From: a virus
Strand: one strand, 5' to 3'
Length of the DNA stretch: 49,440 nt
Virus record (IMG/VR): IMGVR_UViG_3300009446_000003
Coordinates: 1 to 49,440 of that record
The notes under the pieces are model-generated. The model ran no database searches, was not told the origin of the DNA, and worked only from the letters and a program-made list of their open reading frames with translations. Positions 3,455 to 49,440 of this stretch are shown here, piece after piece. The stretch's first letter is position 1. Each line of letters begins with the position of its first letter. The position numbers were made by a program, and so were the translations under genes.

Positions 3455-4762
3455 ATGCCTAAAGTAATAAAGCCAAGACTTCACCAAAAAAAATGCAAGG
3501 AAAATGTATTGAAGCATTTTGAAAATTATGACAGGGCATTAGGTGTCATGCCTTGTGGCAGTGGTAAAACAATCACTTCTTTATTAATCGCTAAAGAAAT
3601 GAATGCACAAAGTTTGATCTATGCGGTTCCTACGCTAAAGTTGCAAGAACAGGCTTTGAGTGTTATTGACTCTTTGGAATTGCTAGGATTGAATTGTGAA
3701 GTGTTTTGTATAGGATCAAACAAGAATATTTCAAAATTAAATTGGAAATTTCCAGTACATTCATCTACTAGTGTAGTTAAGATAAGAGAATTTATTGATA
3801 AAAAAAATGACGGTAAATTAAAGGTTTTTATCACAACTTATCAGTCATCTAAAAAATTGCAAAAGGCATCAAGTGGATTTCAATTTGAATTTGGAATACT
3901 TGACGAGTCGCACAGGTTGGCAGGTGTAAAGGGTAAATCTTTTAGCACTATTCTTTTTGATAAAAATATAAATATAAAAAGAAGGTTGTCAGTAACAGCT
4001 ACGCCAAAATATTATGATAATGATTTCAATTTTCTGAGCATGTCGAATAAAAAATATTTTGGTAAGTGTGTTTATGAGATGTTGTTAGATGAAGCAATTG
4101 AAAATAATATTTGTTGCGATTATAGAATAAAACTATTGTTAATAGAAGAAGAAAGCTTTATAGGTAGAAAGGTTATAAATGAAAATAGAAATATTTTGCT
4201 TTATAATCAATTGAATGAAATAATAAAAAAAGAAAAAATTAAAAAGATAATTTCTTTTCATAACAGAGTTTATGACGCTAAACATTTTGCGGATTTATTT
4301 CAAGGAAACAAGAAGTATGATTCATTTACTGTGTCAAGTAAAACTGTAGACTTTGACCAACAGTTAAGTAAATTCAAAGATTCTAAATTTGGAATAATTA
4401 CAAATTCATCTATCTTAGCAACTGGATATGACTATCCAAAAATTAAGTGTGTTATAATGAAAGATGTAACGGGTTCTGATGTGGACTTAATACAGCATTT
4501 TGGAAGAGTTTTAAGGAAAGACGGCAATAAGGTTGCAACAATGGTATTGCCATTTTTTTACAAATCAAGTTCTTGGAATTGCGTTTACAATGCTGGTGAG
4601 ATTCTTAGAACAAATATAGCATTGAAAAATATCAATCTAATTGATTCAAAGATGTTTGATAAGGTCGATATTATAAAGTCAGGTAATCAAGGCACTGTAA
4701 AAAATCAAACTTCATTTAATCGCTTAAAAAGACTAATAGGTATTAAACAAACAAACAAATAA
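3455..4762 (+). CDS. Superfamily-2 DEAD/DEAH-box (DExH) helicase
   Basis: Walker A MPCGSGKTITS, DExH box ILDESHR, motif VI QHFGRVLRK. ATG at 3455 directly follows the stop of the upstream gene. Confidence 0.85.
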   Translation: MPKVIKPRLHQKKCKENVLKHFENYDRALGVMPCGSGKTITSLLIAKEMNAQSLIYAVPTLKLQEQALSVIDSLELLGLNCEVFCIGSNKNISKLNWKFPVHSSTSVVKIREFIDKKNDGKLKVFITTYQSSKKLQKASSGFQFEFGILDESHRLAGVKGKSFSTILFDKNINIKRRLSVTATPKYYDNDFNFLSMSNKKYFGKCVYEMLLDEAIENNICCDYRIKLLLIEEESFIGRKVINENRNILLYNQLNEIIKKEKIKKIISFHNRVYDAKHFADLFQGNKKYDSFTVSSKTVDFDQQLSKFKDSKFGIITNSSILATGYDYPKIKCVIMKDVTGSDVDLIQHFGRVLRKDGNKVATMVLPFFYKSSSWNCVYNAGEILRTNIALKNINLIDSKMFDKVDIIKSGNQGTVKNQTSFNRLKRLIGIKQTNK

Positions 4763-4781
4763 ATAAATAAATAAATAAATT

Positions 4782-8766: not shown

Positions 8767-9210
8767 ATGAATAAAGTAATGAATAAGGAAACACAAACAA
8801 ACAAAGATATTTTCGATTTGTGTTTTTCAAGATTAGACATATCTAAGGGTGATTGGTCTGTTTATAGAACAGACAACAACCCTTTAGAGGACGAGTTTAA
8901 TTTAGTTGTTCATCATTCTAACGGTTATAGAATAGTTCTAACCAAAGAAAAATATGTAAATCCAAAAGACAAAAATTTTTCTTGGCAGAAACTTCAATTA
9001 AACCCATTAGAGTTTGATGAAAACGGGTTTCGATATGAATATTATTCAGATGTTGAAGAAAGCGGATATATAGATATATGCAATACTGATTTTCTTAATT
9101 TGATAACCAAAGAAAATGAAACCACACAAGAACAAAAAAAACAGATAATCATGCCAACTCAAAAAACAGATAATTTTAGCAAATATTTTTATAAACAAAC
9201 AAACATTTAA
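8767..9210 (+). CDS. Hypothetical protein
   Basis: 147-aa ORF preceded by AAACAAATAAACAAACAAA. Confidence 0.5.
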   Translation: MNKVMNKETQTNKDIFDLCFSRLDISKGDWSVYRTDNNPLEDEFNLVVHHSNGYRIVLTKEKYVNPKDKNFSWQKLQLNPLEFDENGFRYEYYSDVEESGYIDICNTDFLNLITKENETTQEQKKQIIMPTQKTDNFSKYFYKQTNI

Positions 9211-9232
9211 ACAAACAAACAAATATTTATTT

Positions 9233-11608: not shown

Positions 11609-12229
11609 ATGGCTAAGAATAAAGAAGAAAGACCTAAAGGCAATGGCGGTAACAGGAGAATACATGAACATCCAAATGCTAATACAAATGGACTTGATAA
11701 GAATCCGCAAAATATAAATAAAGATGGTCGTAACAGGACTTTGAAGGCGATGTTTGATAAGCTACAGGAGGAAGATTCGTGTATATGGCTAAATACCTCG
11801 TTTACAGGCACAGAAAGACAGTTTAAGGCATTTGCTAGTAAAACTAATTTTAAGCACCGTATCATAACTAAAAAGAATGATACAAAAGCCTATTTCTTAG
11901 GTGTTCAGTTATCCAAGCCTGAAGCAATGATGCTGAGACTAGATAAGATACTAATGAACGGATCAGATGCAACTGCATTGAAAGGCTTTATATTTTTATG
12001 GGAACAGCAAGTGGGGAAGGCAAGGACAACAATTCAATTAGAGAATACAGAAGATCAAACGTTTTCTTTTGATGGTCTAATGTCAATAGTGGATACTAAA
12101 CCAAAGAGCTTATCAGAAAAGAAAGTATTGTCAATTATCAAATATGTAATAGATGTATTTGAAAAACCAGACTTGCCAGTTAAGTTCAAAGATAAATTAA
12201 TTAGAAAATTAAAAAGTCTTACAAAATAA
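11609..12229 (+). CDS. Basic N-terminus protein, possibly a DNA-binding or small-terminase-like (DUF5681-like) protein
   Basis: MAKNKEERPKGNGGNRR...GLDKNPQNINKDGRNRT is loosely reminiscent of GNP.GRP motifs. Weak call from composition only. Confidence 0.3.
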   Translation: MAKNKEERPKGNGGNRRIHEHPNANTNGLDKNPQNINKDGRNRTLKAMFDKLQEEDSCIWLNTSFTGTERQFKAFASKTNFKHRIITKKNDTKAYFLGVQLSKPEAMMLRLDKILMNGSDATALKGFIFLWEQQVGKARTTIQLENTEDQTFSFDGLMSIVDTKPKSLSEKKVLSIIKYVIDVFEKPDLPVKFKDKLIRKLKSLTK

Positions 12230-12295
12230 ACATGACTCATAAATATTCCGTATATTTGAATCGTTGTTGTTTCAAACTCATTGTTTGCTCATTAA

Positions 12296-12328
12296 AGCCC
12301 ATAGTAGAAGTTATTTCTATTATGGGCT
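12296..12328. terminator. Bidirectional hairpin terminator between convergent genes
   Basis: 12-bp stem AGCCCATAGTAG / CTATTATGGGCT (one G-T pair) with a 9-nt loop. Confidence 0.6.
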
Positions 12329-12335
12329 TGTTGAT

Positions 12336-12704
12336 TTATACAACTTTCTTGCCTTGCTCAATTTCATTTATGTAATCGCTAAATCTTTCAATCATTTCTG
12401 AATTATAAGCCAATTCGTAATCATCCAGTAAATAAGTAATTGATGCAATTAATTGTTGTTTCTGTGTCTGTGTGAATTTACTTGGTATAACGGTGGTCCA
12501 TTTTATAGGTATTTTAACCTGTTTGTTCCATGCGGTTATTAGTTCGGATTGATTTTGGTGAACAAAAGAGCATGGACATGGTGAATGTGGGCTATGTGAT
12601 ATACAATGCCAAGTTATAGTACCATCACTAGACTTTCCTTGAATATCTAACTTTATATCATCCGTACCACAAAAAGGGCAGTTTATCAAATCTAAATTTT
12701 CCAT
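12336..12704 (-). CDS. Lar-like (restriction alleviation family) zinc-ribbon N-terminal domain protein
   Basis: NCPFCGTDDIKL...WHCISHSPHSPCPC...ELITAWNKQ resembles the Lar_restr_allev pattern CPFCG...v.C..C...eAi.aWN.R. Confidence 0.5.
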   Translation of the reverse strand: MENLDLINCPFCGTDDIKLDIQGKSSDGTITWHCISHSPHSPCPCSFVHQNQSELITAWNKQVKIPIKWTTVIPSKFTQTQKQQLIASITYLLDDYELAYNSEMIERFSDYINEIEQGKKVV

Positions 12705-12708
12705 ATAT

Positions 12709-13086
12709 TTATCTTTTTACATTTAGGTTATTAAGATAGTTGTACTTAGTGGTTCCGTATATAGATTTTTCCTTGATAGGCTCAATTGAATTTTGCGTTG
12801 CTCCTATCCTTGTTTGACCTGAATTAATGATCTTTTCATTATGGTCAATTATTCTGATTAGATCAATTACCATTTCGTTAGTATAGCCTGTTATGTCCAG
12901 ATGCCATATCACAAAGTTGTTTATCTCAATGTTGATCTTCTTAATGAAAACCATCTGTTCATCTCTATGGAATGTCACATATGCGTAATCATTAGTAAAT
13001 TGCAAATGATTATCTGACTTTTTAACAAGCTCGTATTTACAGAATTTAACAAAGTGAAATATCAACACGTCAGTTATATCTTTCAT
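12709..13086 (-). CDS. Hypothetical protein (P-cassette driven)
   Basis: ATG at 13086 (MKDITDV...) chosen because the longer ORF to 13188 reads through the conserved promoter/leader cassette. Confidence 0.5.
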   Translation of the reverse strand: MKDITDVLIFHFVKFCKYELVKKSDNHLQFTNDYAYVTFHRDEQMVFIKKINIEINNFVIWHLDITGYTNEMVIDLIRIIDHNEKIINSGQTRIGATQNSIEPIKEKSIYGTTKYNYLNNLNVKR

Positions 13087-13190
13087 TATGATTGTTTTAA
13101 GTTGAATTTTACGCGGTTGATCCGCTAATGTATAACAAAGATAATTCAAACTATCCAAACAAACAAATATTTGTTTGTTTATTTTCAATA
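13087..13190 (-). promoter_or_regulatory. P cassette copy 1: 24-bp palindrome AAACAAACAAATATTTGTTTGTTT (13157-13180), TATCTTTG -7 box, GCGG..CCGC leader hairpin
   Basis: Member of the 11-copy family. The leader 3' part has diverged. Confidence 0.6.
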
Positions 13191-13210
13191 AATATTTAAT
13201 CCTATTTTAT

Positions 13211-13380
13211 TTAAAATAAATAAACAAATGTTTGTTTGTTTTAAAATTTGTTCGTATCTTGCTACAAAGTTCTGTCCACATTGAAAAATAATTTAAAATA
13301 AATAAACAAATGTTTGTTTGTTTTAAAAATAGTTCGTATCTTGCTACAAAATTCCGTCCACACTTACACCATAGGCAAAA
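13211..13380 (+). repeat. Two tandem R modules (~81-89 bp each), P-promoter paralogs facing away from the downstream P cassette
   Basis: AAATAAATAAACAAATGTTTGTTTGTTTTAAAA(T/A)T(T/A)GTTCGTATCTTGCTACAAA(G/A)TTC(T/C)GTCCACA, aligns with the P cassette through the TATCTT box. Confidence 0.7.
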
Positions 13381-13388
13381 AAATGGAT

Positions 13389-13448
13389 TATAATCAATTA
13401 AAAGCTTTACCCTCTATTATACAAGGGCAAAGCTTTTAATTGATTATA
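13389..13448 (-). terminator. Rho-independent terminator: 25-bp stem (1 mismatch) followed by a T7 run on the minus strand
   Basis: TATAATCAATTAAAAGCTTTACCCT / AGGGCAAAGCTTTTAATTGATTATA. The minus strand continues CCATTTTTTTGCC. Overlaps the stop codon of 13444..13800. Confidence 0.75.
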
Positions 13449-13800
13449 CAAGGCTAAAACCGTAGATAGTTTTGATTTCCTTGCCTTTTATTATCCTATT
13501 GAGTAACTGTCCCAAAGTGTTAGACGTTTCTTTGTGCTTCCAATCATAGAAGGATTGTAAACGCTGAAGGTGTTCAAGGGTAACCCCTTTTATTGCTTGA
13601 TCCCAATATCTATTGGCTAACATATCATCATCACTAACCCTTTGATTTTTCTCAAATCTAAGGCTGTATGTATATCTGATACTTAATTGCAATAACTCGT
13701 AAGACTTCTGAAAATCTTCTTTTCTTTCTGTTGCATACTTTGCAATTTCTAATTTAATTTCTTCTGTAAATTCTGGAAATTCTGGAAATTCTGAAAACAT
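13444..13800 (-). CDS. Hypothetical protein (P-cassette driven)
   Basis: 118-aa ORF starting directly after the conserved leader ...CTTTATACAG-ATG. Confidence 0.55.
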   Translation of the reverse strand: MFSEFPEFPEFTEEIKLEIAKYATERKEDFQKSYELLQLSIRYTYSLRFEKNQRVSDDDMLANRYWDQAIKGVTLEHLQRLQSFYDWKHKETSNTLGQLLNRIIKGKEIKTIYGFSLV

Positions 13801-13897
13801 CTGTATAAAGTTTTTAAAGGTTGTGCGGTTGATCCGCTAATGTATAACAAAGATAATTCAAATTATTTAAACAAACAAATATTTGTTTGTTTATTTT
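13801..13897 (-). promoter_or_regulatory. P cassette copy 2 (palindrome 13869-13892)
   Basis: Near-identical promoter/operator/leader sequence. Confidence 0.65.
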
Positions 13898-13901
13898 AAA
13901 A

Positions 13902-14102
13902 TTATCTTTGGATAGTATCAATACCAATATAGTTTGGGTTTTTCTCCAAAATCTTATCCCTAAACAAATTTATATATTTAGTATATTCATCTTTTGAAAA
14001 ATTGCTTATTACATAAAGATGGTATTTTGTTTTAGTCTTTTGTGTCTTTGCGTTACTTGCCTTTGTTGCTAACTGACTAATTGACATTTGATCTATTTTC
14101 AT
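13902..14102 (-). CDS. Hypothetical small protein
   Basis: 66-aa ORF, second gene of a two-gene unit. Confidence 0.45.
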   Translation of the reverse strand: MKIDQMSISQLATKASNAKTQKTKTKYHLYVISNFSKDEYTKYINLFRDKILEKNPNYIGIDTIQR

Positions 14103-14112
14103 TTATCCGATT

Positions 14113-14325
14113 TTAAAGGCTTATTAAAATTATTTCACTTGCTGTATATTGACAACCATCTATAGAATACAATAGTACTGAGTCGGTGTCTATGCTATCA
14201 ATATTAGACACTTTCAAGGGTATTTCCTCACCTATGTCATGTTTTCCATTTATAGACCTTACGCCTACTGTTTGACCTATTTCCAAATCTTTATCATGTG
14301 TTAATTTCCAAATAAAGGCATCCAT
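14113..14325 (-). CDS. Hypothetical small protein (P-cassette driven)
   Basis: 70-aa ORF starting directly after ...TTTATATCAAT-ATG. Confidence 0.5.
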   Translation of the reverse strand: MDAFIWKLTHDKDLEIGQTVGVRSINGKHDIGEEIPLKVSNIDSIDTDSVLLYSIDGCQYTASEIILISL

Positions 14326-14430
14326 ATTGATATAAAGGTTTAAAATGTTGTGCGACTAATCGCTAATGTATATCAAAGATAATTCAAATAAACCAAATAA
14401 ACAAATGTTTGTTTGTTTATTTGGTTTATT
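14326..14430 (-). promoter_or_regulatory. P cassette copy 3 (variant operator AAACCAAATAAACAAA-N6-TTTGTTTATTTGGTTT; GCGA..TCGC hairpin variant)
   Basis: 16-bp arms at 14390-14405 and 14412-14427. Confidence 0.6.
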
Positions 14431-14437
14431 TGGTTAA

Positions 14438-15169
14438 TTAATTAATTGATATTCTAGACTTGTTATAGCTTCCAGAAATTCCAGAATTTAAGTTAACATT
14501 ATTTCCAATATCAGAGCCTTTTTTGTAAGCATTTCTATTTGTGTTAATTCGGGCAGACGGTCCGTTTTTGGTTCTTACTCCTGTTTTTTTCAAGAATAAC
14601 TTATAATCTGATTCAACTATTTTCATTTTGTTAGTTTCTACTAGTCCATATTCTACAGAGCTATAATTGTCTTTATTCAACAATGACAGCCTATCATATA
14701 TCGACATACTAAAACCTTTGCAAAAGTCAGTACATTTACTTTTGCCATGCCTTGAATCATTTTTATATACTGCTGTTTTCTTGAATTTTGTTAATTCTGA
14801 AAACATAGTGTTATAAATAAAATTGTAAAAGTATTCAAACAATAAAATGTCTTTCTTTGATCCAAATATCACATATTCATTTTCTGTATTTATATAACCA
14901 CAACAGTTATATAGTAGGCGCAATTGAGGCACAAAGAAATTAGTCTTATATTTGAATTTATCAAATATCTTTACTTTTTTAAATTGGTTTTTGTCCCTAT
15001 CTTGTTTTTTCAAATCTGATTGACTTATATTGTATTTGTTCATCATTTTTTTAGCCTTAGATATGGCTGTCAATGTCTCGTTTTCGCTTGCACCTGAATC
15101 ATTAGACATTCTAATCAGAGAATTAATTGTATTCGTTATAGATTCTTTTTTTTCGTCTGAAATTTTCAT
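14438..15169 (-). CDS. DUF2786-like N-terminal domain protein
   Basis: TINSLIRMSNDSGASENETLTAISKAKKMMNKYNI resembles the DUF2786 pattern (i.kLL.la......EA..Al.kA..Lm.ky.i). Confidence 0.5.
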   Translation of the reverse strand: MKISDEKKESITNTINSLIRMSNDSGASENETLTAISKAKKMMNKYNISQSDLKKQDRDKNQFKKVKIFDKFKYKTNFFVPQLRLLYNCCGYINTENEYVIFGSKKDILLFEYFYNFIYNTMFSELTKFKKTAVYKNDSRHGKSKCTDFCKGFSMSIYDRLSLLNKDNYSSVEYGLVETNKMKIVESDYKLFLKKTGVRTKNGPSARINTNRNAYKKGSDIGNNVNLNSGISGSYNKSRISIN

Positions 15170-15265
15170 ATTAATATAAGTTTTAAAGGTTATGCGGTTG
15201 CTCCGCTAATGCATAACAAAGATAATTCAAATTATTTAAACAAACAAATATTTGTTTGTTTATTT
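15170..15265 (-). promoter_or_regulatory. P cassette copy 4 (palindrome 15238-15261)
   Basis: Near-identical promoter/operator/leader sequence. Confidence 0.65.
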
Positions 15266-15284
15266 TGCAAATAAAATTCATTGA

Positions 15285-15380
15285 AAAATAATTTAAAATA
15301 AATAAACAAATGTTTGTTTATTTTAAAATTTGTTCGTATCTTGCTACAAAATTCCGTCCACACTTAAACCACAGGCAAAA
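15285..15380 (+). repeat. R module (one full copy plus the junction remnant of a second)
   Basis: About 90% identical to 13292-13380; part of the left copy of the inverted repeat paired with 18176-18320. Confidence 0.7.
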
Positions 15381-15386
15381 TTTTTA

Positions 15387-15419
15387 ATATCCAGTAGTAC
15401 AATTTGCACTACTGGATAT
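15387..15419 (-). terminator. Hairpin terminator ATATCCAGTAGT-N9-ACTACTGGATAT
   Basis: 12-bp perfect stem directly after the stop of 15426..15845. The same hairpin occurs inverted at 18180-18212. Confidence 0.65.
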
Positions 15420-15425
15420 ATATTA

Positions 15426-15845
15426 TTAATCTTCAGATTTTGACGCTGTTAATATTTCGGTTTTTATTTCCATTTGCTTAAACGCTTCTTTTATATTTAT
15501 TCCGTTATTCTGAAAATCACCACCTGTACAGTCAAAAACAACCGTCATGCCTTCTTTTTTTGGCTGTTCTCCATATAGTCCAGTAAGATCATGCCAACCT
15601 TTGCATACAAAGGCTTTTTTGTATTTGGCGCGGTACTTCTTTCGTTTCCCTTTGCCTTTATATATTAAATACAATTCGCTTTTAAATCCATTAGATTTTA
15701 ATCTTTCTCGTCCATGTTCAAATAGCCATATGTGAGTACGACTTACAATCTCCATAGAATTTTGAACTACTAATGTAGCTTTTATTTTTTTTGGTAAAAC
15801 TATCTTGTATGTTGAGGGTATAAAGTAATCTGTTACGGCATTCAT
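15426..15845 (-). CDS. Hypothetical protein (P-cassette driven)
   Basis: 139-aa ORF starting directly after ...TTTATATCAAT-ATG. Confidence 0.55.
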   Translation of the reverse strand: MNAVTDYFIPSTYKIVLPKKIKATLVVQNSMEIVSRTHIWLFEHGRERLKSNGFKSELYLIYKGKGKRKKYRAKYKKAFVCKGWHDLTGLYGEQPKKEGMTVVFDCTGGDFQNNGINIKEAFKQMEIKTEILTASKSED

Positions 15846-15940
15846 ATTGATATAAAGTTTTAAAGGTTGTGCGACTAATCGCTAATGTATATCAAAGATA
15901 ATATAAATTTTATAAACAAACAAATATTTGTTTGTTTGTT
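15846..15940 (-). promoter_or_regulatory. P cassette copy 5 (palindrome 15914-15937; GCGA..TCGC hairpin variant)
   Basis: Near-identical promoter/operator/leader sequence. Confidence 0.65.
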
Positions 15941-15950
15941 TAAAAATAAA

Positions 15951-15984
15951 ATAGGGTAGCGATTTTTTAAAAAAGCTACCCTAT
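15951..15984 (-). terminator. Hairpin terminator ATAGGGTAGC-N14-GCTACCCTAT
   Basis: 10-bp perfect stem after the stop of 15989..16318, followed by TTTATTTTTA on the minus strand. Confidence 0.6.
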
Positions 15985-15988
15985 TACA

Positions 15989-16318
15989 TTATACAACAAC
16001 CTTTAAATTATCATATTTTTTTTGTTTGGCTATTGAATGCGGAACAGTTCGCCATGTAAACTCTAATTCTTCGCACATTTCAATCAAGGCTTTAAATGAT
16101 GTGGCTCGTATTTTCTGCCATTTAGTTTTATGTATTTCGTAAACAGTTGTTTTTATCCCTGTTTTCCTAATACATTCCTGAAAAAAAAGACTGGATTTTT
16201 CGTTTGATTTTGTTTCATTCAAACACTTTCCATTTGAATCACAAACAAAATATTTTTTAGATTCCGCGTTATGTTCGCGTGTATATCCTGCTAGATTTGA
16301 AAGTTTTAAATTTCTCAT
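15989..16318 (-). CDS. Hypothetical protein
   Basis: 109-aa ORF downstream of 16389..17072 with no P cassette of its own. Confidence 0.5.
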   Translation of the reverse strand: MRNLKLSNLAGYTREHNAESKKYFVCDSNGKCLNETKSNEKSSLFFQECIRKTGIKTTVYEIHKTKWQKIRATSFKALIEMCEELEFTWRTVPHSIAKQKKYDNLKVVV

Positions 16319-16348
16319 TAATTTTTAAGATTTTAAGATTTTAAGATT

Positions 16349-16375
16349 GACCATTCAGAAAAAATCTGAATGGTC
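16349..16375. other. Intercistronic hairpin GACCATTCAGA-N5-TCTGAATGGTC next to three TAAGATTT repeats (16326-16349)
   Basis: 11-bp perfect stem. The T-run lies on the plus strand only, so it may stop antisense transcription or attenuate the operon. Confidence 0.4.
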
Positions 16376-16388
16376 ATTTTTTTTTAAT

Positions 16389-17072
16389 TTACCCCCATAA
16401 TTTAATAGCGGTTTCTAAATCTTTTGTAAGATTGTTAACCTTCTTTTTTGCGTAAGTTAATGAATAACTATGCTCCCTTGCAAGTGTGCCGTCTTTATAT
16501 CCCTCATGAATTTCTTTTGCATCTTCTAATTGATATTCGTAAAACTCTATACAAGCAGGCATGGAAAGGTTCATGTCGTTTACTTTACTTTCCCAATATT
16601 GCGCACGACTTTTGTAAGCTTCTGACTTTCTTGATTCTGCCACCATTTTATCCATGCGGTTCCAGTTCCTTTTTATCAAAGCCCTGTGCTTTTTTTCCGA
16701 GTGGTGACCAACTAGGATTGGCTGACCAAATGGAATAATGTCATGCCCTTCTTTTGATGCTTCCCATGCTTCTGTGCTTCTTTTACTTGCATTTTCAGAA
16801 TATCCGTTTAACTTTTCGGCTTTTTTCTTTGCGTATTCCTGTGAGTTAAAACCGTCCTGTCTAACAATCGAATAATAAAAAGAATCACTATCCGTGTAAA
16901 TTAAATTAAAAACTATGCATTCATGCTCTTTGCCGTATCTAGTTGTTAATGTGATAATGTCACCTTTGACATGTTCGCTGTGACACTTAGCTAAAAAAAC
17001 ATTTGGACAATATTTTTTATAAGTATTTTTCAATTCTGTACTTTCCGTACTTGTGTTTTTTAATGGATTCAT
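16389..17072 (-). CDS. DUF3560-like protein
   Basis: ...EKLNGYSENASKRS...FGQPILVGHHSEKKHRALIKR... matches the GQPILVGHHSE(R/K)(R/K)HR core that I associate with DUF3560 proteins of plasmids and ICEs. Confidence 0.65.
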   Translation of the reverse strand: MNPLKNTSTESTELKNTYKKYCPNVFLAKCHSEHVKGDIITLTTRYGKEHECIVFNLIYTDSDSFYYSIVRQDGFNSQEYAKKKAEKLNGYSENASKRSTEAWEASKEGHDIIPFGQPILVGHHSEKKHRALIKRNWNRMDKMVAESRKSEAYKSRAQYWESKVNDMNLSMPACIEFYEYQLEDAKEIHEGYKDGTLAREHSYSLTYAKKKVNNLTKDLETAIKLWG

Positions 17073-17170
17073 ATTAAAAATTAAGTTTTAAAGGTTACGC
17101 GGTTGATCCGCTAATGTATAACAAAGATAATCTAAATTTTATAAACAAACAAATATTTGTTTGTTTATTT
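17073..17170 (-). promoter_or_regulatory. P cassette copy 6 (palindrome 17143-17166)
   Basis: Near-identical promoter/operator/leader sequence. Confidence 0.65.
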
Positions 17171-17174
17171 TTAT

Positions 17175-17831
17175 TTATTCATAGATGGATTGGCATGGCA
17201 ATGCTTCAAATTCTGCTTTGTTTGGACTCAAAACATATCTTTTTTTGTTTAGGCAATACTCCAAACCTAAATTTAATAAATACGCTGTATCTTCAAAGAA
17301 AACATTTCTACTATATGCATTTGTACAAAAATTAACAAAATCATCTTTTTGGTATTTGTTGTATGTTCGCATCATTTCCACATTATCAGGATAGAAGTTA
17401 TTAAACTCGTTAATGTAATCATATGTGTTTGAAATGTATTCTTTTAGCTCCTTAGAAAATTCTTTTAGAGTTGATTTGCATGGCAATGCATCAAAATCAC
17501 ATTGCCATATTTCCAATAAATAACGCTCGTTAATATCACAAAAATTTATATTTGAATCAATTAGATTTGCAATATTTTTAAAATCAATATTTCTTATATA
17601 TGCTTTTGTGCAAAAATCAACAAAGTCATCTTTTTGAATACCTACTAAAATACTAGCTCGACAATCATAATTATCTATGTAATCATAAACGTCTTTTATG
17701 TATTGATCTAAAGCATTATCATAAGTAAAATTACCCTCTGTATGTATTGTTACGCTTCTTTGTGTGTCACTTGTAATGTTAAGCGTGTATTGAGTCAAAC
17801 CTATTTGATTTGTATTTGATATTAAAGTCAT
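17175..17831 (-). CDS. Hypothetical protein with an internal two-fold repeat (DDFV(D/N)FCT(K/N)AY...FEALPC(K/Q)S)
   Basis: 218-aa ORF starting directly after ...CTTATATCAAT-ATG. Two ~95-aa homologous halves are visible. Confidence 0.55.
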   Translation of the reverse strand: MTLISNTNQIGLTQYTLNITSDTQRSVTIHTEGNFTYDNALDQYIKDVYDYIDNYDCRASILVGIQKDDFVDFCTKAYIRNIDFKNIANLIDSNINFCDINERYLLEIWQCDFDALPCKSTLKEFSKELKEYISNTYDYINEFNNFYPDNVEMMRTYNKYQKDDFVNFCTNAYSRNVFFEDTAYLLNLGLEYCLNKKRYVLSPNKAEFEALPCQSIYE

Positions 17832-17951
17832 ATTGATATAAGGTTTTAAAGGTTACGCGGTTGATCCGCTAATGTATAACAAAGATAATCTAGATTATCT
17901 TTGTTATACATTAGCGATTAGTCGCACAACATTTTAAACCTTTATATCAAT
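17832..17951. promoter_or_regulatory. P cassettes 7 and 8 fused back-to-back (divergent), containing a 50-bp perfect palindrome 17867-17916 and no AAAC operator
   Basis: Left leader (GCGG..CCGC variant) drives 17831<-; right leader (GCGA..TCGC variant) drives ->17952. The two TATCTTTG boxes are 8 bp apart. Confidence 0.65.
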
Positions 17952-18173
17952 ATGGATTTATCACAACAAATACAGGAACTAGAAAAAAATTGGGACAATG
18001 AAAATTGCAAAAAACTATACAGAGATTTAACCGACTTTTCAATAATTCCAAATGTAGAATTGAAAAAATTGAAATTAGTTTTTAATAGAAATCAATTTAT
18101 AAATAGTTACGGATTGGAGCAAATACAAAGAAAGTACAGTACTGAAGTTTTTAATAAAGTGTATCCAGTATAG
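17952..18173 (+). CDS. Hypothetical small protein (P-cassette driven)
   Basis: 73-aa ORF directly after ...TTTATATCAAT-ATG. Confidence 0.5.
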   Translation: MDLSQQIQELEKNWDNENCKKLYRDLTDFSIIPNVELKKLKLVFNRNQFINSYGLEQIQRKYSTEVFNKVYPV

Positions 18174-18179
18174 TAATAT

Positions 18180-18212
18180 ATATCCAGTAGTGCAATTTGT
18201 ACTACTGGATAT
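18180..18212 (+). terminator. Hairpin terminator ATATCCAGTAGT-N9-ACTACTGGATAT
   Basis: 12-bp perfect stem 7 nt after the stop codon; inverted copy of 15387-15419. Confidence 0.65.
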
Positions 18213-18215
18213 TAA

Positions 18216-18385
18216 AAATTTTGCCTATGGTGTAAGTGTTGACAGAATTTTGTAGCAAGATACGGACTATTTTTAAGATAAACAAACATTTGTTTATTTA
18301 TTTTAAATTATTTTTCAATGTGGACGGAATTTTGTAGCAAGATACGAACAAATTTTAAAACAAACAAACATTTGTTTATTTATTT
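18216..18385 (-). repeat. Two tandem R modules (inverted relative to 13211-13380)
   Basis: Cores at 18236-18277 and 18318-18360: (G/A)TGT(T/G)GAC(A/G)GAATTTTGTAGCAAGATACG(G/A)AC... Confidence 0.7.
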
Positions 18386-18414
18386 TAAAGGAAACTTGAA
18401 TTAAATATTTTTTG

Positions 18415-18513
18415 CAAAACAAACAAACAAATATTTGTTTGTTTGTAAAATTTGAATTATCTTTGATATACATTAGCGATTAGTCGCACAACCTTTAAAA
18501 AATTTATATCAAT
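18415..18513 (+). promoter_or_regulatory. P cassette copy 9: palindrome 18421-18444, TTTG(18434-18437)-N20-TATCTTTG(18458-18465), GCGA..TCGC leader hairpin
   Basis: Exact Bacteroidota -33/-7 geometry, with the -33 box inside the right palindrome arm. Confidence 0.7.
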
Positions 18514-18885
18514 ATGGTAGGTAGTGAATATGTTAAGAGAAATGATAAATCTATAACTTGCAAAGTTTTAGATACAATTAAAATTGGATTCGATGACGGA
18601 TTTAAATGTAAGATAAAAGATATTGAATACAAAACCGAAAAGATACAGAATCATCTAAAACGCGATTTTAACGATGTTTGGCAGCCTTTAATTTTCGTAA
18701 AGATACCATGCACTTGTATTGGATACGCCAACGAATACAGTATCTTTTTAAATGAATCAATTATAAAAATATACCAAAAAGGATTAACGGAAATTGCATA
18801 TAAATTATATTGTACCGACCCCATGCAAAAAGAAACAATATTAACGATTGAAGATTTTATTAAAACAATGAGATTGTTTAAGTAA
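18514..18885 (+). CDS. Hypothetical protein (P-cassette driven)
   Basis: 123-aa ORF directly after ...TTTATATCAAT-ATG. Confidence 0.55.
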   Translation: MVGSEYVKRNDKSITCKVLDTIKIGFDDGFKCKIKDIEYKTEKIQNHLKRDFNDVWQPLIFVKIPCTCIGYANEYSIFLNESIIKIYQKGLTEIAYKLYCTDPMQKETILTIEDFIKTMRLFK

Positions 18886-18888
18886 AGC

Positions 18889-18937
18889 AAACTACCAATA
18901 TCTGTAATAAAAAATTCAGTTATTGGTAGTTTTTTTT
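18889..18937 (+). terminator. Rho-independent terminator (AAACTACCAATA...TATTGGTAGTTT followed by a T-run)
   Basis: 12-bp outer stem plus a 3-bp inner stem; T-run through 18937. Confidence 0.8.
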
Positions 18938-18939
18938 AT

Positions 18940-19095
18940 ATTTGCAATGTGGACAGAACTTTGTAGCAAGATACGAACTATTTTTAAAATAAACAAACAA
19001 ATAAACATTTATTTTAAATTATTTTTCAATGTGGACGGAATTTTGTAGCAAGATACGAACTATTTTTAATATAAACAAACAAATAAACATTTATT
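18940..19095 (-). repeat. Two tandem R modules upstream of 19116..19676
   Basis: Cores at 18947-18990 and 19029-19070: ATGTGGAC(A/G)GAA(C/T)TTTGTAGCAAGATACGAACTATTTTTAA. Confidence 0.7.
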
Positions 19096-19115
19096 TTTGA
19101 AATTAATCAAAACTT

Positions 19116-19676
19116 ATGAGTAACAAAAAATCAAATCTAAAGTCTTTAAAAAGGCTTGGGCTTATTAGACTATTCAAAAATACTAATTGGAAGCATAACG
19201 GCAAAGGGACCGCGTGTTATAAAGGATTTGGATACGGTCAGTACGAGCTAAAAGATAGGGCTAAGATAATGGGAATACCAGAAATTGATTTAGTTACAAA
19301 AAATCACTATGAGCAATGGGAAGGTGTAGAGGTCAAAATGATAAAGGGCGCATTTCATACATCTATAGAAATATCTAAAGAATTGATTGATGATAATAGC
19401 TATAACCCACCAAGTAAAATTTTAAGAATAAAAAACCCTTCAAATAATCCGTTTATTGCATCGGTTTGTTTTCCAGATTTGGAATTGATATTCACAAATA
19501 TTGTTACACAAAATCAAGTTAGTAAAGATTTGATATTTTCGCAACTAGACATAACAACAGGTAAATTTGATCCATATGTCAAGTTTAATCCTAGAGTGTT
19601 TTTGTATATTGACTATGTTAGTGATGTCGCTAAAAACGATCTTTTTTCAAATAAAAAACGATACAATTTAAAATAA
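19116..19676 (+). CDS. Hypothetical protein
   Basis: 186-aa ORF, last gene of the accessory island. Confidence 0.55.
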   Translation: MSNKKSNLKSLKRLGLIRLFKNTNWKHNGKGTACYKGFGYGQYELKDRAKIMGIPEIDLVTKNHYEQWEGVEVKMIKGAFHTSIEISKELIDDNSYNPPSKILRIKNPSNNPFIASVCFPDLELIFTNIVTQNQVSKDLIFSQLDITTGKFDPYVKFNPRVFLYIDYVSDVAKNDLFSNKKRYNLK

Positions 19677-19699
19677 ACAAATGTTTATTTGTTATTTGA

Positions 19700-19736
19700 A
19701 AAACCTTAGCAATTTAACGATTGTTAAGGTTTTTTT
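19700..19736 (+). terminator. Rho-independent terminator (AAAACCTTAGCAA-N8-TTGTTAAGGTTTT followed by a T-run)
   Basis: 13-bp stem (one G-T pair) followed by TTTTTT. Confidence 0.8.
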
Positions 19737-19819
19737 AGTATGTGGTATTTTTATTGTATTTTTGTAGTGAATACAAACAAACAAATAATTAAACATTTAT
19801 TTAAAATTTTAAACTAGAA

Positions 19820-21115
19820 ATGCCGCATACAACATTTAATTCTATTGAATTAAGTGACTACCAAAAAGGATTCTTGTATAATGACAAGCGGTTCACTGTA
19901 GTTGAAGCAAGCACAAAAGCTGGCAAGACACAGCCATGTATACTTTGGTTACTTCAAACGGCTTTAAATGCTAATCCAGTACTGAATTATGATGATGTTG
20001 ATGGTAAGAACTTTTGGTGGGTAGCCCCTGTTTATTCTCAGGCTAGAATTGCCTTCAGGAGAATGAAGAAAATAGTTAAAAAAATAAAAGGCTTCAGTTT
20101 CCGAAAAATGGAAATTGAAACCCCTTTGGGTTCTATAATAACATTTAAGTCAGCAGAAAAACCTGACAATCTTTTTGGAGAAGATGTATATGCTTGTGTT
20201 TTCGATGAATACAGTAGAGCTAGGAAAGAAGCATGGAATGCAATTTACTCTACTCTAACGGCAACAAAAGGAGTAATCAAGGCAATAGGAAACTATAAAG
20301 GTCTTAACAATTGGGGGCATAAACTAATGTTAAAGGCACAAAAAGACGATAGGTATTACCATGCTATTATAACGGCTTGGGATGCAGTAGAAGCTGGCAT
20401 ATTAGAAAGGCAAATAATTGAAGATGCGCAAAGCGACTTGCACCCTGACGAATTTAATGCGCTATATCTTTGCAAAGGCTCAATTGACGATCTTCGATTG
20501 TTCATGATGAAATGGATTAATAAAGTTTTTGGCAAGAAGAAAAGCAATAGAACAGGTGAGTATTTTATAACGGCAGATTTGGCGTTTGATGGTTCGGATT
20601 TATTGGTTATCGGCATTTGGGATGGATTGAATTGTTTTGAAATAAATACTTTCAAAAAGTCAAGCGGAAGAAAAATAAAGAAATTGATTAACAAATATGC
20701 AAATAAATACAATGTTAGTGAGGGGAATATTGTTTATGATGCAGATGGTGGGGGCATGGGGCTAAGTGGAATACTAAAAGGAAAGAAATTTAAAAACGGA
20801 AAGAAAGCAGTTAACAATGAGGATTTTGTAAATTTGAAAGCAGAATGCATTTACAAGTTAGCTGAATTGATGAAAAAAGGAAAGATAACAGTTTGCAAAA
20901 AGTACAGAGATCAAATCTCTGAAGAAATGGAATACATAAGAAAAGTTTATGATAGAAAAGACAGATTAGGAGTAAATAAAAAGTCAGAACTCAGAAAAAT
21001 AATAGGTCGTTCAACGGACTTTCTGGACATGCTTTACATGAGAATGATATTTTTATTAGAACCCGAAATTGATGTTTCTTTTGAAAAGATAAGTACGGGT
21101 ATATTTAAAAGATAA
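19820..21115 (+). CDS. terL: Terminase large subunit
   Basis: Walker A VEASTKAGKTQ, Walker B YACVFDEYS, nuclease-domain acidic motifs ITADLAFDGSD and IVYDADGGGMG. First gene of the morphogenesis block. Confidence 0.85.
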   Translation: MPHTTFNSIELSDYQKGFLYNDKRFTVVEASTKAGKTQPCILWLLQTALNANPVLNYDDVDGKNFWWVAPVYSQARIAFRRMKKIVKKIKGFSFRKMEIETPLGSIITFKSAEKPDNLFGEDVYACVFDEYSRARKEAWNAIYSTLTATKGVIKAIGNYKGLNNWGHKLMLKAQKDDRYYHAIITAWDAVEAGILERQIIEDAQSDLHPDEFNALYLCKGSIDDLRLFMMKWINKVFGKKKSNRTGEYFITADLAFDGSDLLVIGIWDGLNCFEINTFKKSSGRKIKKLINKYANKYNVSEGNIVYDADGGGMGLSGILKGKKFKNGKKAVNNEDFVNLKAECIYKLAELMKKGKITVCKKYRDQISEEMEYIRKVYDRKDRLGVNKKSELRKIIGRSTDFLDMLYMRMIFLLEPEIDVSFEKISTGIFKR

Positions 21116-21139
21116 ATAAACAAACAAATATTTAAAAAT

Positions 21140-32317: not shown

Positions 32318-32417
32318 AAATAGAGGTATTTTTTAGATGTTTGTTTATTTACATAGTTTATATTTGTATTGACAGAATAAATAAACAAATATTTAAACAA
32401 ACAAATATCTAAAAATT

Positions 32418-35048: not shown

Positions 35049-36242
35049 ATGACGGCTATAAAAATAGAGCTAGGCTCTAATTGCAAGTACTCACCTAAAA
35101 AAGTTAAGCGCGTCATGGGCGCAGTTTTCAAAAAATACAAAGATAAAGATTATTTGAAATCAAGCTTCCCTGAGTTCACTAAGTTATCAAATTCATCATC
35201 TATGGTCGTTGATCCTGAAATGATGGACGGTTTATTTATTTGCCCTTCAAACTCTGAATTAAAACTATGGACTGCCAATATTGACGGCTGTATAGTTCCA
35301 ATTCGAGAGTGTGGGGAAATTACAATAAATGCTAATGGTGAATGTCACTCTGTTCAAGATGATGGTATTAAATTGAAAGAGGAATGTGCTATTTTGACAG
35401 GTAGTTTTTGCTTTGAAACTCACTCTATAACAATAGATGAGACTAAGTGCAAAAAAACAAACTTAGACATGACTGAAATCATTTCTCTAACGCTTGACAC
35501 GTTGAGAAAAAGTGCAGACTTGGAATTATCAAAAGTTATGTATAATTGCTTAGAGGAAAGTATTGATATACTGTCAATAGAAGAAGAAAATAAATTCAAT
35601 CAGCTAATGGCTGGTACTGGTGTTGTTTTTGGAGATGGTTGCATTCAGGTTCCTAATGGAATCACACAGGAAATTCTTTTGAAGTTATGCATAGCTGACG
35701 AACACCTTTGTTTGAATTTACTAGATAGAATGATTATTGATTCTAATAATTTTTTAGAATATTCAATAATTAAAGACAGTACCGAGAAGGGTACTTGCTG
35801 TAATTACTACAGTGTCATGGATAAATACGGTGAGTACTGTAAAGGTTCAAAGGCATTTAGTAAGTATAATAAATCAGAAACTTATTTTGTTAGTCCTGGT
35901 CACATTAATTATGTAAACTACACTGGTGTATCAAATACACTTGCTAGTCCTGAGTTGCTTAGAAGTAATATCCAAAACAAATTGTTTAGATTTGTTATAC
36001 CTTCACAAGTGCAAACTTGGAGAAAAAACTCTAATGGTACAAGTTCAGTTGTTCCTGTGCTGTATACAGTTGATTGGGAAACTAAGTGCTTACAGGGCAA
36101 TGTTCATGACAAAAAGCATTGTATTAAACTTACGCATGAGGGTGGAATTTACCAGTCTCCTAGCTACAAGAATTTATTTGGAGAAAAAGAGCATTGCGGA
36201 GCTTTTAAGATGATAAATCTTGCTAATTTGAAAGCGGCTTAA
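35049..36242 (+). CDS. Putative major capsid protein (Cys-rich, 18 Cys in 397 aa)
   Basis: Size and position after the scaffold-like gene. No motif-level support. Confidence 0.35.
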   Translation: MTAIKIELGSNCKYSPKKVKRVMGAVFKKYKDKDYLKSSFPEFTKLSNSSSMVVDPEMMDGLFICPSNSELKLWTANIDGCIVPIRECGEITINANGECHSVQDDGIKLKEECAILTGSFCFETHSITIDETKCKKTNLDMTEIISLTLDTLRKSADLELSKVMYNCLEESIDILSIEEENKFNQLMAGTGVVFGDGCIQVPNGITQEILLKLCIADEHLCLNLLDRMIIDSNNFLEYSIIKDSTEKGTCCNYYSVMDKYGEYCKGSKAFSKYNKSETYFVSPGHINYVNYTGVSNTLASPELLRSNIQNKLFRFVIPSQVQTWRKNSNGTSSVVPVLYTVDWETKCLQGNVHDKKHCIKLTHEGGIYQSPSYKNLFGEKEHCGAFKMINLANLKAA

Positions 36243-46880: not shown

Positions 46881-46979
46881 AAAATAAACAAACAAATATT
46901 TGTTTGTTTGCAAAATTTAGATTATCTTTGTTATACATTAGCGGAACAACCGCATAACCTTTAAAAACTTTATATCAAT
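46881..46979 (+). promoter_or_regulatory. P cassette copy 10: 24-bp AAAC palindrome, TTTG(46899-46902)-N20-TATCTTTG(46923-46930), leader hairpin GCGG-AACAA-CCGC (46941-46953)
   Basis: Exact -33/-7 geometry; ATG at 46980. Confidence 0.7.
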
Positions 46980-49234: not shown

Positions 49235-49327
49235 TCATCATTTTCATTATTGTTGATTATTACATCATTATTACAAATATTATTACGTGCCTATAATAAA
49301 ATGATAATCAAATGATTGTATCTTTTT

Positions 49328-49440
49328 AAACGGGTAAAGAGGGATGTTTAAACGGGTAAAGAGGGATGTTTAAACGGGTAAAGAGGGATGTTTAAACGGG
49401 TAAAGAGGGATGTTTAAACGGGTAAAGAGGGATGTTTAAA
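49328..49440 (+). repeat. Iteron array (five 22-bp copies plus a 3-nt partial); the same physical array as 11-142 on the circular map
   Basis: AAACGGGTAAAGAGGGATGTTT at 49328, 49350, 49372, 49394 and 49416. Confidence 0.9.

Follow-up and report, generated by a model that had tools for sequence, protein, structure and literature searches.

In the type I toxin-antitoxin systems of Bacillus prophages (bsrG/SR4, txpA/ratA), the gene and the small RNA overlap at their 3' ends and the RNA promotes decay of the mRNA. The temperate cluster A mycobacteriophages carry stoperators, repressor sites of 13–14 bp that occur genome-wide. In phage lambda, Krinke and Wulff reportedly described OOP RNA acting on cII in 1987 and 1990. 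OOP is a 77-nt RNA with its own terminator that lowers cII through RNase III in E. coli (cited in PMC5869508). The promoter-early stem-loop (PeSL) cassettes of T4-type phages are terminator/promoter composites located between early ORFans (PMC2839356; PMC4122927). Among bacterial promoters, the closest described class is SM5 of Flavobacterium psychrophilum, a TAnnTTGY motif at −12 to −5 obtained from 5'-end RNA-seq (Guerin et al., 2021, ISME Commun; PMC9723704) and confirmed through mutagenesis at remFG-sprCDBF. In the retrieved part of that study, the SM5 start sites listed include TAACTTGC, TATCTTGC, TAAATTGC, TATTTTGC and TATATTGT, and the signal in the few rows concerned is lower than in the neighbouring sigma-A rows (PMC9723704).

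The DNA analysed here (49,440 nt in full; hereafter the window) is a circular genome of roughly 49 kb with 30% GC, from an uncultured phage. An initial annotation had described seven modules in it, termed R, as reverse-facing paralogs of a promoter, P. A search with the R core GTTCGTATCTTGCTACAAAATTCCGTCCACA, allowing up to 3 mismatches, bore out both the count and the positions, with exactly seven matches in the window (chance expectation 0; none in any of 100 dinucleotide-preserving shuffles). The cores start at 13250, 13332 and 15332 on the + strand and at 18237, 18319, 18948 and 19030 on the − strand, tandem copies recur with a period of 82 nt, and the copies are 78–95% identical to one another. 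The members of the family and one possible remnant are:

13207–13288, + strand: R1, distal copy at locus A; TTTG at 13231–13234, box TATCTTGC at 13255–13262, predicted +1 at 13267
13289–13380, + strand: R2, proximal copy at locus A; box at 13337–13344, predicted +1 at 13349; its tail CACTTACACCATAGGC leads into an A-run and the hairpin
15262–15292, + strand: what may be left of a second R at locus B after decay, ATTTTGCAAATAAAATTCATTGAAAAATAA, read directly from the sequence
15289–15380, + strand: R3, single copy at locus B; box at 15337–15344, predicted +1 at 15349
18219–18310, − strand: R4, proximal copy at locus C; box at 18255–18262, predicted +1 at 18250
18311–18392, − strand: R5, distal copy at locus C; box at 18337–18344, predicted +1 at 18332
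18940–19021, − strand: R6, proximal copy at locus D, with the left half of its palindrome replaced; box at 18966–18973, predicted +1 at 18961
19022–19103, − strand: R7, distal copy at locus D; box at 19048–19055, predicted +1 at 19043; its far end bears a + strand TATTTTTG box (19092–19099), 17 nt ahead of the start codon of gene 19116

Two long inverted repeats tie the loci together, pairing 13205–13380 with 18219–18394 (176 nt, 95%) and 15279–15428 with 18171–18320 (150 nt, 93%), the latter with the terminator hairpin inside it. The neighbouring features, from left to right, are:

13087–13192, − strand: P1 cassette, back to back with R1, boxes 111 nt apart
13389–13448, no strand assigned: long hairpin ending gene 13444–13800, with a TTTTTTT run (13378–13384) on the gene-sense side only
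13444–13800, − strand: gene for a 118-aa ORFan, the sole gene of the P2-driven cassette at which R2 and R1 point
15170–15275, − strand: P4 cassette, back to back with R3, boxes 112 nt apart
15387–15419, no strand assigned: hairpin ATATCCAGTAGT..ACTACTGGATAT ending gene 15426–15845, duplicated at 18180–18212
15426–15845, − strand: gene for a 139-aa protein of unknown function (phrog_24737), the sole gene of the P5-driven cassette at which R3 points
16348–16385, + strand: canonical hairpin and T9 terminator inside the leftward operon
17952–18173, + strand: gene for a 73-aa ORFan, the sole gene of the P8-driven cassette at which R4 and R5 point
18180–18212, no strand assigned: hairpin ending gene 17952–18173, a copy of the 15387–15419 hairpin
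18406–18513, + strand: P9 cassette, back to back with R5, boxes 113 nt apart
18514–18885, + strand: gene for a 123-aa ORFan, the sole gene of the P9-driven cassette at which R6 and R7 point
18889–18932, no strand assigned: hairpin ending gene 18514–18885, followed by a T8 run on the gene-sense side

The order is the same at all four loci, namely the 3' end of a gene, a strong hairpin and one or two R copies, followed at three loci by a back-to-back P cassette and at the last by gene 19116, which lacks a P cassette and sits immediately behind R7. Every locus closes a single-gene cassette, and R is convergent with the upstream gene in each case, so the placement between terminator hairpin and next cassette or gene described earlier was seen throughout. 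R points against both of its neighbouring genes, the co-directional role being that of P, and in the divergent P/R unit the distance from box to box is fixed at 111–113 nt at three loci.

The two elements share a promoter geometry. The TATCTTTG box is present in all 11 P cassettes, which follow the sigma-A consensus TTTG-N20-TATCTTTG, and all seven R copies, read towards the upstream gene, hold TTTG-N20-TATCTTGC, with TTTG at −36 to −33, TATCTTGC at −12 to −5 and A at the predicted +1. In generalised form, TTTG-N20-TAnnTTGY has 10 matches in the window against 1.2 expected, seven of them R, and TTTG-N20-TAnnTTTG has nine against 0.9 expected, all of them P. With R and P aligned on the box, 37 of 56 upstream positions are identical, where shuffles average 20 and reach at most 29, and both elements have the centre of the palindrome 25 nt before the box; the 25 nt downstream agree at chance level (7/25). 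The proposed paralogy thus holds for the promoter half, the transcribed parts being unrelated. Transcription from P is predicted to start about 5 nt past each TATCTTTG.

R is not a strict Bacteroidota sigma-A promoter: all seven copies have TTTG some 20 nt before the box, but the −7 box is TATCTTGC in place of TAnnTTTG in every one. It has instead the SM5 arrangement TAnnTTGY (TA and TTG 2 nt apart, then a pyrimidine) in 7/7 copies, and the single base by which the SM5 box is shorter than the sigma-A box between TA and TTG is exactly the difference between R and P. In the retrieved part of the F. psychrophilum data, the box of one mapped start site (479610) is identical to the R box TATCTTGC, over GTATCTTGC, and a T at −36 is marked in five of the seven promoters, the position at which the TTTG of R begins (PMC9723704). 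SM5 promoters have A or C five bases past the box, and in R this base is A. The antisense direction holds a complete promoter geometry that matches the Flavobacterium TAnnTTGY/SM5 class (PMC9723704), which is stronger evidence for an antisense promoter than the initial annotation had. The known SM5 members are host promoters ahead of genes for LPS synthesis, gliding and peptidases, whereas R is a phage element, present in seven copies, tandem and aimed at the 3' ends of genes.

Across the seven copies, variable positions number 0/12 in the boxes, 5/20 in the spacer, 11/24 in the upstream part and 4/16 from +1 to +16; the contrast between boxes and spacer gives p = 0.13. Because the copies are so alike and mosaic, the invariant boxes may stem from recent copying or gene conversion and not from selection. 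The conserved +1 to +16 segment is unaccounted for by a model in which R is a convergent promoter.

To be read as an SM5 promoter, R would need a polymerase of the Flavobacterium or Bacteroidota type, and the host of this phage is inferred from its genome. SD-like sites precede 1 of 58 genes and start regions are A-rich; together with the enriched TTTG/TAnnTTTG promoters and the GC content, these features indicate that the host is probably a Flavobacterium-like member of the Bacteroidota. The best-covering plasmid matches of the Rep protein are also from Bacteroidota (~23% identity). To our knowledge, the primary sigma factor of this phylum does not use −35/−10 promoters, and phage gene regulation in it is almost unstudied, although the phylum is prominent in the sea and the gut. 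Neither an integrase nor a repressor was recognised among about 40 proteins scanned, a set drawn from outside the late and structural genes, and the reference to lysogens in the earlier description is thus without support.

We judge it reasonably probable that R initiates transcription at all, and we tentatively favour, at somewhat below an even chance, a reading in which the R modules are convergent promoters whose transcripts pass over the hairpin and the 3' end of each of four early single-gene cassettes, acting like OOP or by transcriptional interference. R modules would be diverged copies of the upstream half of P, the early promoter cassette, and the polymerase reading them would be that of a Flavobacterium-like host from the Bacteroidota, the one-base shortening of the −7 box from TATCTTTG to TATCTTGC having shifted them from the sigma-A consensus to TAnnTTGY/SM5. 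Each would fire backwards, about 5 nt past the box, to give a transcript with an unstructured leader of 30–40 nt starting AAAUUCCGUCCACA; it would next copy the opposite strand of the terminator hairpin and then the 3' end of the cassette it faces (13444–13800, 15426–15845, 17952–18173 or 18514–18885). The four facing genes would likely be lowered or switched off, either through pairing with the 3' end of the mRNA, which would remove the protective hairpin in the manner of lambda OOP on cII, or through head-on collision with RNA polymerase that has passed the hairpin, an encounter that would at the same time shield the following P cassette. Output would be higher from tandem R pairs.

With the SM5 box at −12 to −5, the predicted transcripts begin AA(A/G)UUC(C/U)GUC(C/A)ACA; the shared 5' segment proposed in the initial annotation, CUACAAA(A/G)UUC(C/U)GUCCACA, is kept in this form but loses four bases. 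In the predicted RNAs a 5' arm that stays single-stranded precedes a strong hairpin, and transcripts that contain the hairpin fold with z = −4 to −7.6; folding of the R unit found no RNA structure besides the palindrome and the terminator hairpins. The hairpins had been described as bidirectional, which is doubtful because the clean T-runs (two loci) sit on the gene-sense side. The hairpins at 15387–15419 and 18180–18212 have mixed A/T tails on both sides, and a clean U tract in the R direction was found at none of the four, the tails read in that direction being ACAAGGCUAA, AUAUUAUUAA, AUAUUACUAU and GCUUUACUU. The hairpins fold strongly and are not symmetric terminators. The + strand terminator at 16348–16385 makes sense within a leftward operon only if there is rightward transcription; antisense transcripts that run rightward from R1–R3 may end there.

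Lambda OOP is a parallel in layout, a phage promoter just past the 3' end of an early gene that points back into it; at all four R loci the predicted promoter is likewise convergent and beyond the 3' end of its target. In lambda the gene is lowered by a short RNA whose sequence complements the 3' end of the mRNA, an effect that for R is predicted. OOP is a single RNA, whereas R faces four genes, is mostly tandem and has its upstream half in common with the early promoters; OOP has its own terminator, and no clear one was seen for R in the direction in which it would be read. The bsrG/SR4 and txpA/ratA systems share with R the convergent pair of gene and small RNA overlapping across a common terminator, but their toxins are small and hydrophobic and the four ORFs facing R are hydrophilic (73–139 aa). 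R most likely gives rise to antisense RNA by which the facing genes are damped or insulated; the device is familiar, its repeated form unusual.

A reading that we consider rather unlikely, and that would leave any transcription from R as noise, takes R for an inverted, slightly decayed P and a by-product of cassette shuffling, with conserved flanks (P up to the start codon; hairpin and R after the stop codon) serving as recombination homology through which ORFans are swapped. PeSL cassettes are comparable as repeated composites in a variable early region with signs of use as recombination points, and the R-bearing repeats do end at stop and start codons, flanking unrelated ORFans without relatives: in two unrelated ORFs, the 150-nt repeat 15279–15428/18171–18320 reaches 2–3 nt into the stop codon before it ends. 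Individual copies have a mosaic make-up (R4 agrees with R2 to one side and with locus B to the other), two spacer types and two leader variants are reassorted among them, and the possible remnant at 15262–15292 would fit decay. What shuffling fails to account for is that the single-base change defining R is identical in all seven copies and matches a real promoter class exactly, in place of random decay, and that the orientation of R to the genes is uniform at all four loci. PeSL promoters, moreover, point with genes and not against them (PMC4122927), whereas R is not co-directional with the downstream gene and belongs to another promoter class than the co-directional P. Shuffling explains the spread of R and does not exclude that the spread elements are convergent promoters.

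It is unlikely, too, that R works as DNA, its palindrome and core binding the phage or host factor that binds P and serving as auxiliary operators, decoys or orientation-dependent roadblocks behind terminators; auxiliary operators 82 bp apart could bind cooperatively or loop with the adjacent P about 60 bp away. The palindrome AAATAAACAAAT|GTTTGTTTGTTT of R is 2–3 mismatches from the perfect palindrome of P and, in R1–R5, lies at the same distance from the box; the fixed P/R spacing at three loci, the period of about eight helical turns and an imperfect dyad in the R core (GTAnCnnGnTAC, by direct reading) would also suit a protein site. However, R6 and R7 lack the left half of the palindrome and keep the −33 side and the box, so that a promoter fits better than a site for a dimer, and a binding site needs no intact TA..TTG box with an A five bases later. 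The palindrome half AAACAAACAAAT commonly precedes start codons across the genome, so the 'operator' may be no protein site. The P7 and P8 cassettes, which drive 17175–17831 and 17952–18173, lack the palindrome. The early genes yielded no recognisable DNA-binding protein, and the Pfam and PHROG scans of about 40 proteins gave no HTH protein or sigma factor for the palindrome. Stoperators resemble R as numerous asymmetric intergenic sites whose orientation is tied to the direction of transcription, but R units are 82 nt long, have full promoter geometry and lie behind four terminators only.

An extension of the convergent-promoter reading, which we regard as highly improbable, is that the R promoters form a phage-borne TAnnTTGY regulon whose transcripts cross the hairpin and a single small ORF (300–540 nt) to end antisense to the P leader. 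Such an 'anti-leader' RNA, made from four loci, could silence the whole early gene set in trans, because a hairpin leader of about 45 nt is common to all 11 P transcripts, and its common 5' tag AAAUUCCGUCCACA could be the handle for a protein partner. A search within the phage for a trans target of the R 5' segment gave best matches of 11–12 nt, which is chance level.

Read the other way, every R copy also contains TTGTAG-N18-TA(A/T)(A/G)A(T/C), as had been noted; the pattern is present but is hardly a working promoter, since its second hexamer is variable (TAAAAC, without the final T, in 3/7 copies), sigma-70-like matches in the region are not enriched (36 against 52 expected from shuffles) and it is unsuited to the inferred Bacteroidota host. 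On the same three grounds the direction of firing, left open in the initial annotation, is largely settled towards antisense. Gene-direction firing from TTGTAG-N18-TAAAAT, or a micro-peptide encoded by R (MWTEFCSKIRT... in gene sense; MFVCFK... in the R direction), is barely credible: the constant geometry, short ORFs in an A-rich context on both strands (direct reading) and the position of gene 19116 behind R7 speak for it, but that gene has its own TATTTTTG box, GTG replaces ATG in the proximal copies, and the micro-ORFs on either strand keep neither frame nor length among copies, R6 and R7 having another frame.

If R fires as a convergent promoter, four early genes are under a repeated, modular antisense promoter derived from the early promoter by a one-base change, a compact example of promoter class switch and redeployment, and its seven near-identical natural TAnnTTGY copies would be a probe for the factor that recognises this class in Flavobacteria. 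The system of P, R and hairpin cassettes is a candidate parts set for genetic tools in Bacteroidota hosts. If R is silent, the finding reduces to an ordinary recombination footprint in an ORFan-rich early region.

Relatives were sought in public data, and no related genome carrying R was found in the collections searched. Scans for the R core covered viral contigs, with two patterns, as well as metagenome contigs and a genome collection of 185,579 species. They gave no match or single chance matches in unrelated contexts, as did scans of viral contigs for the P box-plus-leader pattern and the P palindrome. These results speak against any known relative and against derivation of R from a host CRISPR repeat, REP element or MITE. 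R was also rejected as a CRISPR repeat, phage mini-array or repeat mimic, the whole 82-nt unit being repeated with no unique spacer. Megablast of 12000–20000 against 50,697 phage records and tblastn with the portal and 35049–36242 gave no match. Rfam covariance models gave no match at gathering score, sub-threshold matches being generic hairpins, and a tRNA search of the window found none. The best terminase homologues are 54%, 51% and 47% identical, and the contigs carrying terminase homologues (L007–L011) have other upstream regions, with no P- or R-like repeats. At the 90% level, the clusters of ten early proteins contain this phage only, with identical proteins in 2–3 assemblies; a 243-aa early protein finds only itself, and a 227-aa protein is a widespread accessory gene.

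Copies of R are dispersed and inverted, and a role as replication origin iterons was rejected because the Rep_3 gene and iterons lie elsewhere: a 22-nt tandem array at 1–145/49316–49440 adjoins the Rep_3 initiator (47903–49234) and is the candidate for the true origin iterons.

The 31-nt core of the R modules occurs exactly seven times in the window, where none is expected, and all seven copies lie where the initial annotation had placed them. Tandem R pairs have a period of 82 nt. The order at each locus is the 3' end of a gene, a strong hairpin, one or two R modules and a back-to-back P cassette (an early promoter cassette, of which the phage has 11 or more, including two at 46.9 and 47.4 kb), with gene 19116 replacing P at the last locus; the annotated position between a terminator hairpin and the next P cassette or gene was thus found throughout. 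R always points toward the gene just upstream. Not stated in the annotation is that the R of every locus ends a cassette with a single gene (P, one ORF, hairpin, R):

13444-13800, ORF of the cassette with P2
15426-15845, ORF of the cassette with P5
17952-18173, ORF of the cassette with P8
18514-18885, ORF of the cassette with P9

The R6/R7 pair also has consensus TAnnTTTG boxes at its outer edges, on the gene-sense strand:

18937-18944 (+), TATATTTG box at the hairpin/R6 junction
19092-19099 (+), TATTTTTG box 17 nt ahead of the start codon of gene 19116, a gene lacking a P cassette

When aligned at the -7 box, R and P agree in 37 of the 56 positions upstream of it (shuffles averaged 20, with a maximum of 29), and both have the centre of the palindrome exactly 25 nt ahead of the box. 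The 25 nt downstream are unrelated (7/25 matches). The proposed paralogy of R and P therefore holds for the promoter half, and R combines a copy of that half of P with another transcribed segment. The decisive difference between them is the -7 box itself, TATCTTTG in every P and TATCTTGC in every R.

Four features taken together suggest that the host belongs to Bacteroidota, probably to a low-GC group such as the Flavobacteriia: a GC content of ~30%, an SD-like site in only 1 of 58 genes, A-rich AAA(C/T)AAACAAA(T) motifs 5-15 nt ahead of many start codons across the window (for example 4757-4780, 9208-9232, 21115-21139 and 32393-32417), and an excess of TTTG-N20-TAnnTTTG (n=9 in the window vs 0.9 expected). 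The A-rich sequence is a phage-wide translation start motif and constitutes one half of the P palindrome.

In Flavobacterium psychrophilum, TAnnTTGY (SM5) lies at -12 to -5 of mapped 5' ends, was borne out when the remFG-sprCDBF operon was mutagenised, and is described as a sigma-A box minus one base between TA and TTG (Guerin et al., PMC9723704). TATCTTGC fits this motif and is not a broken sigma-A box. The seven SM5 promoters retrieved from the supplementary table read TAACTTGC, AAACTTGC, TATCTTGC, TAAATTGC, TATTTTGC, TAAATTGC and TATATTGT; five of these seven have a marked T at -36, and among them the dpp11 promoter equals R over GTATCTTGC (PMC9723704). R itself has TTTG at -36 to -33 and an A, the predicted +1, five bases downstream of the box. 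Across the seven R copies the boxes vary at 0/12 positions, the spacer at 5/20, the upstream segment at 11/24 and the early transcribed segment at 4/16; invariant boxes beside a variable spacer fit a promoter, although the contrast does not reach significance (p = 0.13), the copies being young.

The initial annotation had left the firing direction open, offering a sigma70-like geometry (TTGTAG-N18-hexamer) in the flipped reading, which we could not uphold. We take antisense as the sole credible direction for the predicted R promoter, because the flipped hexamer is TAAAAC in 3/7 copies, the region shows no enrichment of sigma-70-like sites and primary sigma factors of Bacteroidota are not known to use -35/-10 sigma-70-type promoters. 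The predicted starts are:

13267, 13349 and 15349 (+), R1-R3
18250, 18332, 18961 and 19043 (-), R4-R7

For the proximal copies the predicted leader is unstructured and 30-40 nt long, with the sequence AAAUUCCGUCCACACUUACACCAUAGGC at three loci; after it comes the gene's terminator hairpin in complement. That this hairpin is bidirectional, as first annotated, is doubtful: both clean T-runs (13378-13384, and the T8 that follows the 18889-18932 hairpin) are on the gene-sense side, the remaining two hairpins have mixed A/T tails, and in the direction of R the tails are at best moderately U-rich and, at the R1/R2 locus, not U-rich. Since R-ward there is no clean U tract, the predicted RNAs may end at the hairpin (75-100 nt) or continue into the ORF in antisense. 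On the + strand, a canonical terminator carrying a T9 run (16348-16376) lies inside the leftward operon, antisense to it, and would, we infer, stop rightward antisense transcription from R1-R3. The surrounding stretch (16320-16385) comprises three copies of a 9-nt unit, AATCTTAAA, and then the T9 hairpin. We found no convincing trans target of the R leader within the phage and no Rfam family match for R.

We propose that R would act as a convergent promoter firing into the 3' end of the facing gene. By one route, the antisense RNA would pair with the 3' end of the mRNA, whose protective hairpin would be lost, as is reported for lambda OOP and cII (Krinke and Wulff 1987, 1990). By the other, head-on interference would affect polymerases reading through the hairpin, with insulation of the next P cassette as a further effect. 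Arranging the copies in tandem would increase output. Should the palindrome common to R and P be an operator, it would place R1-R5 under joint control with P, and R6 and R7, which are missing its left half, would be free of that control. That R initiates transcription at all seems reasonably probable; the full model of convergent antisense or interference promoters is put forward tentatively.

It is unlikely that R modules are recombination linkers with no dedicated role, akin to the promoter-early stem-loop (PeSL) cassettes of T4-type phages. The repeat ends are ORF ends, the copies are mosaic and a possible decayed remnant lies at 15262-15292, but PeSL promoters are co-directional with genes (PMC4122927) and the R-defining change is uniform and falls on a real promoter class; linkers account for the spread of R rather than its function. 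Action at the DNA level, as operators, decoys or roadblocks, is slightly less likely still: although R and P have the palindrome in common and their spacing is fixed (111-113 nt), R6 and R7 keep the promoter side alone, Pfam and PHROG scans of the early genes found no DNA-binding protein, and the palindrome half is a general motif ahead of start codons. A sense-direction promoter or micro-peptide is very hard to credit given the TAAAAC hexamers, the unenriched sigma-70-like sites and the Bacteroidota sigma preference, and the micro-peptide was rejected since reading frames differ between copies.

R belongs to no curated family. In its proposed mode of action it would resemble lambda OOP, or the antisense RNAs with 3' overlap in type I toxin-antitoxin pairs of Bacillus prophages; its construction is that of an SM5 promoter, and its spread is like that of a PeSL cassette. 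Antisense promoters are already known in phages. The novelty lies in the form: the module is repeated, mostly in tandem, apparently derived from the phage's own early promoter via a one-base class switch and placed behind four terminators in a phage of inferred Bacteroidota host. Drawn from the sequence of a single genome, R offers a regulatory design that is tidy and testable, and it could give access to the TAnnTTGY class.

The 5' leader of all P transcripts contains a small conserved hairpin in two forms, GCGG-ATCAA-CCGC and GCGA-TTAG-TCGC (for example at 13100-13130, 14340-14372, 17905-17935, 18468-18500 and 46932-46960). A G-to-A change is paired with C-to-T on the opposite side and the loops vary (GAGCA, GAACA), which suggests a selected RNA hairpin at ~+7 to +19 of every early mRNA. 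P7 and P8, back-to-back at 17870-17905, have their -7 boxes inside a perfect palindrome, CAAAGATAATCTAGATTATCTTTG, and lack the AAACAAAC palindrome of other P cassettes, which may make them an immediate-early pair free of regulation.

Both window ends (1-145 and 49316-49440) carry tandem copies of a 22-nt unit, TTTAAACGGGTAAAGAGGGATG, which makes the contig a circular assembly of ~49.3 kb. The genome is that of a tailed phage, with these among the recognised genes:

12336-12704 (-), Lar-like restriction alleviation protein (phrog_599, E = 1e-4), lying where the leftward early block ends
19820-21115, terminase
47903-49234, Rep_3 initiator (Pfam Rep3_N 2.9e-24, Rep3_C 2.2e-12), the 22-nt array (~6-7 repeats) directly after it
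ERF recombinase and helicase
topoisomerase-like protein

The array adjoining the Rep_3 gene is likely the origin; together they look like a plasmid-style iteron origin, and this tailed phage may be a phage-plasmid. Among the ~40 proteins scanned, all outside the late and structural genes, there was no recognisable integrase. The phage is without an informative relative: megablast of 12000-20000 against 50,697 phage records gave no match, in a set of 5.8 billion proteins the closest terminase homologue has 54% identity, and the 90% clusters of ten early proteins have this phage alone as member.

ORF 45754-46638, separated from P10 by a ~240-nt non-coding stretch, matches di-haem cytochrome c peroxidase/MauG (Pfam CCP_MauG 1.4e-07), an auxiliary gene unusual for a phage. 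Early ORF 17175-17831 (-) has an internal duplication with 285-nt spacing (17270-17351/17555-17636 and 17188-17213/17473-17498), which suggests a two-domain repeat protein. Two near-identical ~65-nt segments, 216 nt apart (38715-39030) within the 882-aa ORF 38036-40684, are probably a repeated domain of a tail or fibre protein.
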